From the IMG/VR virus record IMGVR_UViG_2648501338_000008: DNA of 11,021 nt. One strand, written 5' to 3'. The notes below the pieces were generated by a model, which was not told the origin of the DNA, did not search any database, and worked only from the letters and a program-made list of their open reading frames with translations. The stretch comes from a virus (taxonomy: Duplodnaviria; Heunggongvirae; Uroviricota; Caudoviricetes). Below are positions 7,479 through 10,222 of this stretch, in pieces. Made by a program: the position numbers and the translations under genes. Each line of letters opens with the position of its first letter. The first letter of the stretch is position 1.

Positions 7479-10222
7479 TTTCCGCCTCCTGCATCCCGTC
7501 CACGTTTGGCAGCCAGGGTCCAGCCTGATGAATGAGCTTCTCCGGGTTTATCACCGGTCATACTGTTGCAGTGCCACAGCGAGCCCCCCCACGTCACCGT
7601 ATCACCGGGGTGGTAGGTTTCACCGGCTCTGAACACACCGCGGTAGAGCATCACCGGCAGGGAAAATGTTTTTTCCGTACGCTGGCCACTGCTCTGCCGG
7701 ACCACCACAGTGAACGACCGTTCGCCGGTCATGCTGACGTCAATATCGGCCACCCCGTCAACCAGGCATTCCCATCCCCGCATCCCGTGCGTTTTTTCAT
7801 ACGCCCGCCAGAGTCCGCCCTGGTGTGTGGCATACGTGCCCCGGGGAAAGGATTTTTGATCGTCAATGGCGGGGATTATTTCCAGTGCCGTGGCATCACG
7901 CCCGTCCTGCGGAGCCGGCAGGGCTCTCACCGCATCCAGAACAGCCTTCTGCAGAACATCGGGATCATAGTCACGACCATCACGCGGAACAGGAATATGG
8001 CTTACCGCCTCTTTCACCATCTGTTCAAGCATCGGACGCACATCATCGGGGGTAATACTTTTGCCGTCCGCCGGTACCGGAATATTCGCGACCGCATCAT
8101 TCACCGCCTTCTGCAGTACTTCCGGATCGTAATCACGACCATCACGCGGAACAGGAATATGGCTTACCGCCTCTTTCACCATCTGCTCAAGCATCGGACG
8201 CACATCATCGGGGGTAATACTTTTGCCGTCCGCCGGTACCGGAATATTCGCAACCGCATCATTCACCGCCTGCTTCAGTACTTCCGGATCGTAATCACGA
8301 CCATCACGCGGAACAGGAATATGGCTTACCGCCTCCTTCACCATCTGTTCAAGCATCGGACGCACATCATCGGGGGTAATACTTTTGCCGTCCGCCGGTA
8401 CCGGAATATTCGCAACCGCATCATTCACCGCCTGCTGCAGTACATCCGGATCATAATCACGACCATCACGCGGAACAGGAATATGGCTTACCGCCTCCTT
8501 CACCATCTGTTCAAGCATCGGACGCACATCATCGGGGGTAATACTTTTGCCGTCCGCCGGTACCGGAATATTCGCAACCGCATCATTCACCGCCTGCTGC
8601 AGTACATCCGGATCATAATCACGACCATCACGCGGTACCGGAATGGCCCCCACAGCATCATCCACCATCGCCTGCAGAACCGGACGCACCTCATCCACCG
8701 TCACATGCTTCTGTAATACCGCCGACAGGGAAGTCAGTTTCTCTTCAAACGCTTGTGCCTGCGAGGCCATCTTCCCCTCAAATGTGCGCTGTAAATCCGC
8801 CAGCACCGTGGAGAATTCTTCGCCCAGTGCACGAATAATGGACAGTTCCCGTTCCGTCATTTTCGCAGTATCCCCCCTGAACATCGCTTTCACCGCATCA
8901 TGCTCTGTTTCACTGATTGCCTTATTACCGTCAGATGCGCCGTCAGGCAGCTGTGATGAAACTGTTTTCCCGGCAGACGCGAACGGATCCTCACGGGCAT
9001 CACGACGGGACAGCGCCTCCAGACTGTAGTTCTGCTGCTGAAGATACAGTGCATCACCGCCGGCAAGGGGCGGCAGGTTCTCACGTTTACGGGCCTCATT
9101 GGGCGTGAGAAGCGTATTTTTCACCGAATCACCCAGCGTTTTCATGCGACGCTCACTGTCCATTCTCAGCAGCGTGGTGACATCAAACTCCGTACTCTCG
9201 TTTTCCCCCGTTTCCAGCGCCTCATCCAGTAACAGCTCAATGGACTCAATCAGCGTCTGCAGACACTGGGAATAATACTGCTGCTCCAGCGCCTCCACGT
9301 TGTCACTGGAAGGCGGCTGGCCAACGCCAATCTTGTAGGCCGGGACACGGAACACCGAACAGACAATTTCAGCCGTCATCTTCAGTTGTTCCACCGTCTG
9401 CGCATCCACAGGTGAAAACGTCGTGGGGTTATATTTCGCCCCGTTGCTCAGAATGGCCGTTTTCCCCGCATTTTCGCCGGTATACCAGCTGTCCCAGTTG
9501 CTCTTCAGTTTTTTCGCATTTTCTTCCGTAATACTGCCGGGGATCTCAATCACCCCGGACGGCCTGCCGCCATTTCTGAAAAAAGACGTCGAATTTTCCT
9601 GAATATGATGCCCCTGCGTGGCCGCCAGCCCGGCGGCATACACCGGCGGCAATCCTATAAGCGGATGAAAAAAACAGTTAAACCGGTCGTGGATCACTTC
9701 CCGGGCAGGCACCGTCACCGCCTCCGTGATCCCGCAGTTCCGGTCCGGCGTGATGCGGTAGAACACCTCGCCGTCATCCGCCACCAGAGGTTCAACCCGG
9801 CTCCAGTCCAGAATACGCAGTTCTTTGATCTGCCCCCGGGCATTACGGATTTTCAGCACCACCGTATTGCCATGACGCAGTTTGGCGTTCAGCCACAGTT
9901 CAAAAAACTGGATGCGGTTCTGCTGGGCGTTGGGACGACGACAGAGGCGGGCAATATCCCCCCGGCGCGTTTCCCTGCGTATCCCATGCGCATCCGTCTG
10001 CATAAGACGCAGCCGCATTTTGGCGATATCCTGGGATATCAGCGAAATACAAGAAAACACCGCATGAAAGGAGAGGACACCTTCAGGATCGGCTTTCACG
10101 CCCTGCTGCCAGGCGCCGGAAAAAGGCTCAGCCACCGCCTGAAACAGGCTGGTCCAGCCCACCTCTCTTACATCACGTCCTGATTTCTGGTTTTTTCGGG
10201 TTCGCCGCAAAAGGTTCCACAT
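7475..10222 (-). CDS. Portal-domain protein with a long C-terminal extension, 915 aa: HK97-family portal-like core (about aa 1-400), about five tandem 54-aa repeats, and a C-terminal carbohydrate-binding-like domain
   Basis: Core has portal family motifs as I recall them: FFRNGGRPSGVIEIPGSITEENAKKLKSNWDSWYTGENAGKTAILSNGAKY and SPVDAQTVEQLKMTAEIVCSVFRVPAYKIG (compare FF-NGA-PSGvL ... sG-N-GK-avL ... DaQ-LE-rkf--eeIa--F-VP). ATG at 10222..10220 with GGAG about 8 nt upstream. No in-frame stop anywhere in the ORF. Size and C-terminal content are atypical for a portal. Confidence 0.6.
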   Translation of the reverse strand: MWNLLRRTRKNQKSGRDVREVGWTSLFQAVAEPFSGAWQQGVKADPEGVLSFHAVFSCISLISQDIAKMRLRLMQTDAHGIRRETRRGDIARLCRRPNAQQNRIQFFELWLNAKLRHGNTVVLKIRNARGQIKELRILDWSRVEPLVADDGEVFYRITPDRNCGITEAVTVPAREVIHDRFNCFFHPLIGLPPVYAAGLAATQGHHIQENSTSFFRNGGRPSGVIEIPGSITEENAKKLKSNWDSWYTGENAGKTAILSNGAKYNPTTFSPVDAQTVEQLKMTAEIVCSVFRVPAYKIGVGQPPSSDNVEALEQQYYSQCLQTLIESIELLLDEALETGENESTEFDVTTLLRMDSERRMKTLGDSVKNTLLTPNEARKRENLPPLAGGDALYLQQQNYSLEALSRRDAREDPFASAGKTVSSQLPDGASDGNKAISETEHDAVKAMFRGDTAKMTERELSIIRALGEEFSTVLADLQRTFEGKMASQAQAFEEKLTSLSAVLQKHVTVDEVRPVLQAMVDDAVGAIPVPRDGRDYDPDVLQQAVNDAVANIPVPADGKSITPDDVRPMLEQMVKEAVSHIPVPRDGRDYDPDVLQQAVNDAVANIPVPADGKSITPDDVRPMLEQMVKEAVSHIPVPRDGRDYDPEVLKQAVNDAVANIPVPADGKSITPDDVRPMLEQMVKEAVSHIPVPRDGRDYDPEVLQKAVNDAVANIPVPADGKSITPDDVRPMLEQMVKEAVSHIPVPRDGRDYDPDVLQKAVLDAVRALPAPQDGRDATALEIIPAIDDQKSFPRGTYATHQGGLWRAYEKTHGMRGWECLVDGVADIDVSMTGERSFTVVVRQSSGQRTEKTFSLPVMLYRGVFRAGETYHPGDTVTWGGSLWHCNSMTGDKPGEAHSSGWTLAAKRGRDAGGGK
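7890..8700. repeat. Direct tandem repeat array, 162-bp unit, about 4 near-identical copies plus degenerate flanking copies, in frame inside the 915-aa ORF
   Basis: The string tcacgaccatcacgcgg recurs at 7971, 8133, 8295, 8457 and 8619 (exact period 162). Copies starting at 8295 and 8457 appear identical; the others differ by a few substitutions. Encodes repeated VRPMLEQMVKEAVSHIPVPRDGRDYDPDVLQQAVNDAVANIPVPADGKSITPDD, itself two related 27-aa half-repeats. Confidence 0.9.

Follow-up and report, generated by a model that had tools for sequence, protein, structure and literature searches.

The contig IMGVR_UViG_2648501338_000008, analyzed here over its full length of 11,021 nucleotides and called the window, carries a tandem array of near-identical 162-bp units. 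This array lies in a gene that we designate X. One extra G fuses X to the portal gene in the window, and the array most likely encodes a length-variable stalk, perhaps that of a fibre at the portal vertex or neck. Alleles span one to seven units among 93–99% identical Escherichia coli prophages and Shiga toxin (Stx) phages, with the window at the long end. The phenomenon is an ordinary in-frame variable number tandem repeat (VNTR) in a phage gene; the protein that carries it is unstudied. On sequence grounds, X is a large, uncharacterised and almost always stand-alone family.

The repeat array

Tandem Repeats Finder detected a single array in the window, with a period of 162, 4.3 copies, 97% matches, 0% indels and a score of 1290. 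This high-identity core occupies positions 7944–8644 (no strand assigned). An independent repeat search recovered four in-register copies at a spacing of 162 nt. The longest exact self-match at lag 162 extends over 182 nt (8292–8473 is identical to 8454–8635). As this match is longer than one period, two neighbouring units are identical beyond a full period. In 50 shuffled versions of the window, the longest exact run at lag 162 was 10 nt, compared to 182 nt in the real sequence. The head-to-tail copies are thus far beyond chance expectation, and the initial annotation was correct in describing at least four copies of a 162-bp repeat, two adjacent ones being identical. The three inner units differ by 3–6 nt and their amino acid replacements are limited to D/E and Q/K, while in each terminal unit the outer half has diverged.

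The array is encoded by a minus-strand open reading frame (ORF) of 915 residues at 7475–10222. Based on translation and unit register, the repeat region covers residues 512–781 (7880–8689, minus strand) and consists of five units of 162 bp, or 54 residues, making ten helix-loop modules. This closely matches the extent of 7890–8700 that had been proposed earlier. Each 54-residue unit is a pair of modules, A (VRPMLEQMVKEAVSHIPVPRDGRDYDPD) and B (VLQQAVNDAVANIPVPADGKSITPDD), both combining a helix with a loop of the type ‘IPVPxDGxD’. A 27-residue half-repeat had also been proposed. It is present in the protein, where the two modules are 28 and 26 residues long, but has left no trace in the DNA: the array shows no similarity at lag 81, with a longest run of 5 nt. 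The motif ‘P.P.DG’ recurs at alternating spacings of 25 and 29 residues, and matches to its looser form ‘P.P.[DNE]G’ number 0 to 19 per protein among the top 149 relatives of X. As the 25/29 alternation is found family-wide, the 54-residue pair is an old structural unit.

Fusion of gene X to the portal gene

The 915-residue ORF is a composite. Its residues 1–454 (8861–10222, minus strand) are a portal protein of the HK97 family, matching PF04860 (Phage_portal) over residues 54–382 with an E-value of 2.5e-79 and 267 bits (cutoff 39), and TIGR01537 (portal_HK97) with 348 bits (cutoff 112). Both matches are confined to this part. The solved portals 9lbn and 8cez/8fql align to residues 44–420 only. 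The repeats do not belong to the portal fold, since the solved portals align no further than residue 420 and 148 of 149 homologues of residues 455–915 are stand-alone proteins. The structural gene in which the array had been placed is thus a composite, and the repeats themselves belong to a separate portal-adjacent gene, X.

The junction is a run of six G on the coding strand (G6; C6 on the plus strand) at 8872–8877, which joins the two frames. The window shares with the phages YYZ-2008 and phi330 the junction TTCAGGGGGGATACTG, which in a longer read is TTCAGGGGGGATACTGCGAAAATGACG. The E. coli prophage PPompW (LC567841) has five G (G5) and the junction TTGAGGGGGATACTG, or TTGAGGGGGATACTGCGAAAATGACG in a longer read. 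In the G6 allele, the portal frame reads straight into X, such that residues 455–915 are the product of a normally separate gene. In the G5 allele of PPompW, the portal protein ends with GILRK followed by TGA, and this stop overlaps the ATG of X (ATGA); the two genes are annotated as separate coding sequences with a 4-nt overlap. The ancestral start codon of X is retained in the window as the ATG of Met455 (8858–8860, minus strand), where the stand-alone homologues and phrog_8767 begin. These homologues open with MNERELS or MNDREID exactly at Met455, as can be seen by comparing the N-termini of X from Salmonella phage FSL SP-016 (MNERELSLIKVLGEEF), the relative P0121 (MNDREIDIIKAIGES) and the window (MTERELSIIRALGEEF). 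FSL SP-016 has the same AAAATGA stop/start overlap as the E. coli G5 allele.

Both states of the run are common. Among 89 IMG/VR contigs, 39 carry G6 and 50 carry G5; gene spans taken modulo 3 place about 19 of 49 sampled complete genomes in the fused class. The G5 sequences are diverse, while G6 occurs in a few tight haplotypes near particular G5 sequences. The median distance to the nearest locus of the same state is 0 for the 38 G6 loci, and the 47 G5 loci have a median of 36 differences to the nearest G6 sequence. On the basis of these sequence comparisons, we infer that G6 is a derived frameshift present in a few successful, probably vertically inherited lineages of resident prophages, rather than the normal state. 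One identical haplotype includes five G6 loci and one G5 locus. With both states in one otherwise identical haplotype, the run may slip recurrently.

Copy-number variation

Phage records that are 93–98% identical to the window have gene spans that fall into classes 162 bp apart. Nine records have a span of 2747–2749 bp, 16 of 2585–2586 bp, 13 of 2423–2424 bp, two of 2261 bp and two of 2099 bp; a further 17 partly matching records are also one unit shorter than the window. The same classes (about 2748, 2586, 2424, 2261 and 2099 bp) occur in complete E. coli genomes. The H31 complete genome, which is 99.0% identical, has the same span as the window (2748 bp). For the 89 IMG/VR contigs, units were counted from the distance between the portal/X junction and the start of the C-terminal domain. 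Relative to the window, the most frequent state is one unit fewer (about 40 contigs), followed by two fewer (about 14) and an equal number (seven). Three units fewer were found in one contig, four fewer in two, one more in one, and two more in one. Copy number hence differs among close relatives in both the phage records and the IMG/VR contigs. Fused proteins of 915, 861 and 807 residues are present in the databases. The initial annotation had anticipated in-frame changes in steps of 54 residues and suggested a comparison of related prophages; the span classes and protein lengths bear out the former, and the latter reveals a range of one to seven units.

Recent expansion or homogenisation, as had also been suggested, is supported by the comparison of units within and between proteins. 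In E. coli, P0121 and P0128, units of the same protein are 80–98% identical, compared to 17–56% between orthologues. Units are far more alike within the protein than between orthologues in E. coli, Klebsiella, P0121 and P0128, though not in P0127. The arrays have thus undergone expansion or homogenisation more than once, and independently. Prophages of Klebsiella, Enterobacter, Citrobacter and Salmonella (proteins P0340–P0377) likewise have their own near-identical 54-residue arrays in X.

The X family

The family was explored with residues 440–915 against 1.84 billion cluster representatives, giving 5,599 clusters at E <= 1e-3 and 642 at E <= 1e-30. Among the best 149 relatives, the C-terminal domain is present in 146 and a portal domain in one. 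This one, P0223 (1,237 residues), is an independent portal–X fusion with 38% identity; the other relatives are stand-alone proteins of about 120–860 residues. The PHROGs label of the family is “portal protein”, transferred from the fused alleles, and some fragments of X are labelled “gp6-like connector” in NCBI. A fusion of X to the adaptor Ad1, suggested by the name of NCBI entries from Klebsiella, was rejected: these entries are only C-termini of X, truncated where the contig stops within the repeats.

X lies directly 3′ of the portal gene in all seven homologues with readable context, with stop/start overlap in five of them. The gene is followed by a gp6-like adaptor in Salmonella phage FSL SP-016 and the metagenome locus L006, and by a DNA-packaging protein and adaptor in PPompW, which is 97.8% identical to the window. 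In Pseudomonas phage PAJU2 the adaptor lies a few genes on, and in Pseudomonas phage IME307 hypothetical proteins follow. At the two remaining metagenome loci, L007 and L009, which are distant relatives, X is followed by glycan-modification-like genes. In the regions after portal and X (L007 4472–11475, L009 5294–8414), there are matches to MptE-like (Maf-type), radical SAM/SPASM, BNR, hexapeptide-transferase and methyltransferase families. Judging from these matches, the genes look like a glycan-modification cluster within the phage structural region, and X, with its conserved Ser/Thr-containing loops, could be their substrate.

Architecture of X

The structure of residues 455–915 was predicted with AlphaFold2 using 59 diverse relatives. 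The N-terminal region (residues 455–511; 8690–8860, minus strand) is modelled as one long helix of 48 residues (model residues 3–50), which is confident with a predicted local distance difference test (pLDDT) score of about 90. The stalk is modelled as ten helix-loop modules, with helices of 17 and 13 residues in alternation and loops of 12 residues. The C-terminal region (residues 782–915; 7478–7879, minus strand) is an all-beta domain predicted very confidently within the X model and, when modelled alone, with a pLDDT of 94.5. X has an overall pI of 4.8, with an acidic stalk (pI 4.4) and a basic end domain (pI 8.7).

In its predicted structure, the C-terminal domain has the fold of carbohydrate-binding module (CBM) family 5/12. 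Foldseek aligned about 129 columns to the two-module region of a Vibrio chitin deacetylase and to Agrobacterium phage tail fibres. The best matches of the end domain among predicted viral structures are collagen-repeat, ChiC_BD/CBM5-12 and tail-fibre proteins. When compared with the PDB, the family profile matched CBM-containing chains with E-values of 2.5e-5 to 7e-4, including a baseplate protein at 2.5e-5 and the chitin-binding region of chitin deacetylases at about 5e-4. The relative P0127 matches PF02839 (CBM_5_12) with 29.8 bits, above the Pfam cutoff, and a precomputed PF02839 match exists for many relatives; some relatives also have a precomputed PF28083 domain. By fold, the end domain is thus tandem CBM5/12-like in the model and a putative carbohydrate binder.

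A fold search with the whole X model found this C-terminal domain again and nothing else. Matches of the protein to TetR_C_35, FliG_N and DUF4244 in Pfam fell below cutoff, and PDB matches to designed helical-repeat proteins were treated as compositional, reflecting short amphipathic helices. Some relatives of X have 3–9 Gly-X-Y triplets after the motif KRGRDGKDG. The window protein, which ends in KRGRDAGGGK, has no Gly-X-Y run.

Proposed function and alternative explanations

The repeats would act as a length-variable spacer or stalk between the N-terminal helix, serving as an anchor at the portal vertex, and the distal CBM-like, putatively sugar-binding head. Exact identity of 77–182 nt between units makes them well suited to RecA-dependent unequal exchange and replication slippage. 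With identity of up to 182 nt between units, these processes would add or remove whole A+B pairs of 54 residues and keep the frame. The several paralogous prophages in each Shiga-toxin-producing E. coli (STEC) genome would add opportunities for gene conversion.

With respect to location, we tentatively place X outside the capsid, as an accessory protein of the portal vertex or neck that resembles a fibre or whisker. An external fibre is favoured by the type of end domain and the structures most similar to it, by the Gly-X-Y tails of relatives, and by the position of the gene between portal and adaptor. Several observations weigh against a variable stalk on an external fibre. The stalk is modelled with a pLDDT of 45–65 and the mutual arrangement of its modules is not predicted. 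The CBM_5_12 match of the window protein scores 18.6 bits, below the Pfam cutoff of 26.2. No solved structure places X in a virion, and none is of a relative of X. Literature searches on the repeat, Pankowvirus portal proteins, PAJU2 virion proteins and PDB entry 9LBN returned nothing on X. The G6 run and exact unit count of the window, a draft contig, could be sequencing or assembly errors. Finally, the fusion of X to the portal C-terminus, in the G6 alleles and independently in P0223, argues for an internal location. In solved portals of the HK97 type, the C-terminus is inside the capsid.

This last point is the basis of an alternative that we consider unlikely but worth serious weight: X may be an internal protein of the capsid or procapsid, either a barrel, core or scaffold-like protein attached to the portal crown or an ejected protein, bound to the portal C-terminus. 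How far an internal helical extension reaches would then depend on the repeats, and the G6 fusion would be a tolerated or functional covalent form of a non-covalent complex. Two independent in-frame fusions to the portal C-terminus fit this proposal, as do the conserved adjacency to the portal gene, with stop/start overlap in five of seven cases, and the frequency of G6 (39 of 89 contigs and about 19 of 49 sampled complete genomes). X is also elongated, helical and acidic, like many scaffolding proteins. Furthermore, the head module bearing X has no separate scaffold gene, and D3, with a head module of HK97 order, lacks X. The end domain speaks against an internal role, however, as its neighbours are extracellular chitin-binding modules and the distal domains of tail fibres and collagen-like fibres, and the Gly-X-Y tails of relatives suggest trimeric fibres. 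The fused form is also restricted: it is derived and found in few haplotypes, it occurs in only one of 149 family representatives, and the split tape-measure gene of the window suggests prophage decay.

The analysis must also contend with the sequence itself. As an entire draft contig, with one end in the capsid gene and the other among tail genes, the window has a unit count that cannot be certified. Arrays of this kind had been described as prone to collapse or expansion in short-read assemblies, and in general this concern is borne out. Of the 89 IMG/VR contigs, 21 stop within 1 kb past the junction, at or in the array. Protein databases contain many ‘partial’ portal proteins of 540–660 residues that end in the repeats and fragments of 150–260 residues that begin in them, while entries from Klebsiella and other enterobacteria are cut at contig ends and misnamed ‘gp6-like head-tail connector protein’.

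It nevertheless seems improbable that the array length of the window, and possibly the G6 fusion too, is an artefact of assembly or sequencing, with another unit count and two genes at the true locus. Such an error could arise given that the 182-nt identity between units exceeds a common short-read length, that related contigs break at the array, and that homopolymer runs are error-prone in sequencing. The exact 915-residue protein (WP_052915905.1) is on record from this one contig only, and a second frameshift splits the tape-measure gene. The 2748-bp span recurs, however, in the 99%-identical complete genome of H31, and five-unit arrays occur in closed phage records with 2747-bp spans, all G5 and unfused (LC567841, BP-4795 and others). 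G6 itself is found in 39 independent IMG/VR contigs and in YYZ-2008. In addition, the 3–6 differences between inner units help assemblers to separate them, and the tape-measure indel lies outside any homopolymer.

In the Sanger-derived record of phi330 (L001 5150–6300), a 2-nt insertion lies upstream of the G-run, and three indels cluster in a stretch of 80 nt towards the end of the repeats. Together these changes split the gene into three annotated coding sequences and are probably sequencing errors. We rejected phi330 as proof of a viable fused allele and drew no inference from it: G6 together with the 2-nt insertion separates the genes again, and the further indels are likely errors.

We regard programmed frameshifting at the junction as highly improbable. 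On that reading, slippage on the G-run or at the A-AAA-TGA overlap would normally yield free portal as well as the portal–X fusion, and the repeats would be part of a gene with two regulated products. In its favour, G5 alleles have X in the −1 frame of the portal gene, such that a −1 slip on GGG, or on A-AAA beside the stop codon, would give exactly the G6 protein; there is also a G-rich sequence resembling a Shine-Dalgarno site about 11 nt upstream. Against it, neither the G-run nor A-AAA-TGA is conserved across the family: FSL SP-016 lacks a G-run, PAJU2 has CAATGA, L009 has a 17-nt gap, and IME307, L006 and L007 have overlaps of 8–16 nt.

Genomic context

The prophage in the window is long-tailed and lambdoid and belongs to the Pankowvirus type, as do YYZ-2008 and the Stx1a/Stx2c-converting phages; the window spans its head-to-tail module. 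All genes are on the minus strand. The order begins with a prohead-protease/major-capsid fusion gene, of which the contig retains only the 3′ part (10434–11021; phrog_617 and phrog_10, major head protein) and which encodes 645 residues in YYZ-2008. It continues with a conserved 73-residue ORF (10168–10389; phrog_829), found at the same place between capsid and portal genes in YYZ-2008, FSL SP-016 and PAJU2, and the 915-residue ORF. Next are the gp6-like head-tail adaptor Ad1 (7152–7478; phrog_40, TIGR01560), the ATG of which overlaps the stop of X (ATGA), then head closure, Neck1 and tail terminator. The module ends with an Ig-domain major tail protein, tail chaperones, tape measure and minor tail proteins. 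More generally, head modules carrying X have the order terminase, protease-capsid fusion, small ORF, portal, X, adaptor. Phage_Mu_F, the family of the MuF or SPP1 gp7-type minor head proteins, was not matched in Pfam and PHROGs scans of the window protein and six stand-alone relatives. Of 5,426 complete E. coli genomes, 1,247 carry the gene, most often as several copies, with a median of five matching places.

The tape-measure gene (1242–4485, minus strand) is split into ORFs of 797 and 307 residues, compared to a single gene of 1,080 residues in YYZ-2008. The split is due to a 1-nt insertion near 2098 with three adjacent mismatches and no homopolymer, which suggests either a defective, decaying prophage or a draft error. 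The major tail protein (5223–6077, minus strand) has a C-terminal Ig-like (Hoc-like) domain; from its sequence, this is possibly a second surface-glycan-binding decoration of the same phage. An antisense ORF of 394 residues (7532–8716, plus strand) was dismissed as a gene for want of a meaningful family match. The frame stays open solely because stops are absent from the repeat unit, and gene callers could mis-call it. A scan for promoters and terminators around the gene gave no more sites than in shuffled sequence.

In several RefSeq ‘complete’ E. coli chromosomes (CP107143, CP184080, CP145657, CP104472, CP124392 and others), the portal gene is at exactly 3875, as in phi330. The phi330 record starts at terL, and these chromosome assemblies were apparently rotated so that they begin at the terminase gene of a prophage.

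Significance and comparison with known systems

These findings are of practical relevance for annotation. About half of the annotated “portal protein” in long-tailed phages of the Stx1a/Stx2c type is a different protein, X. Its array is a recurrent short-read breakpoint in Shiga-toxin E. coli, giving rise to thousands of “partial portal protein” entries and to fragments misnamed “portal protein” or “gp6-like connector”. In turn, the 162-bp ladder combined with the G5/G6 state could mark near-identical lambdoid prophages apart. This phage group is medically relevant, and finding where X sits in the virion would make the inventory of its parts more complete. A bolder proposal, to which we give little credence at present, is that X exemplifies a widespread and unrecognised class of portal-vertex accessories, with a portal anchor, a tunable helix-loop stalk, a tandem sugar-binding head, and a G5/G6 attachment toggle. 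In E. coli prophages, gain and loss of units would reset the stalk length, and slippage of the G5/G6 run would switch X between a free and a covalently fused form. If true, this would provide heritable, reversible variation of the portal vertex in phage populations.

X has much in common with the VNTRs of phage and bacterial surface or fibre proteins. In both, near-identical units with a length divisible by three are arranged head to tail, copy number differs among close relatives, arrays are homogenised by lineage, and short-read assemblies break. However, the 162-bp unit of X encodes paired, structured helix-loop modules rather than a low-complexity linker, and the locus is in the head/neck module beside the portal gene, unlike those of VNTR fibre and adhesin genes.

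Two groups of proteins at the portal offer further points of reference. The P22 portal C-terminal barrel and SPP1 gp7/MuF are helical extensions or partners of the portal crown, and their coding sequences sit at the 3′ end of the portal gene or immediately behind it. X is similar in its portal linkage, being fused to the portal in G6 alleles. It differs in having a carbohydrate-binding-like beta domain and a stalk broken by proline-rich loops instead of a continuous coiled coil.

T4 fibritin (wac) and the lactococcal neck-passage or collar-whisker proteins combine a neck anchor, a loop-interrupted helical shaft and a small C-terminal beta domain. Their shaft tolerates loss or gain of segments, their genes lie beside neck genes, and the lactococcal collar-whisker proteins carry carbohydrate-binding modules. 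X appears to resemble them in layout; unlike them, it is sometimes fused to the portal C-terminus. Its end domain differs from the CBM5/12 modules of Serratia ChiB, Streptomyces ChiC and Vibrio chitin deacetylase in being carried on a phage protein and in having an extra first beta sub-domain.

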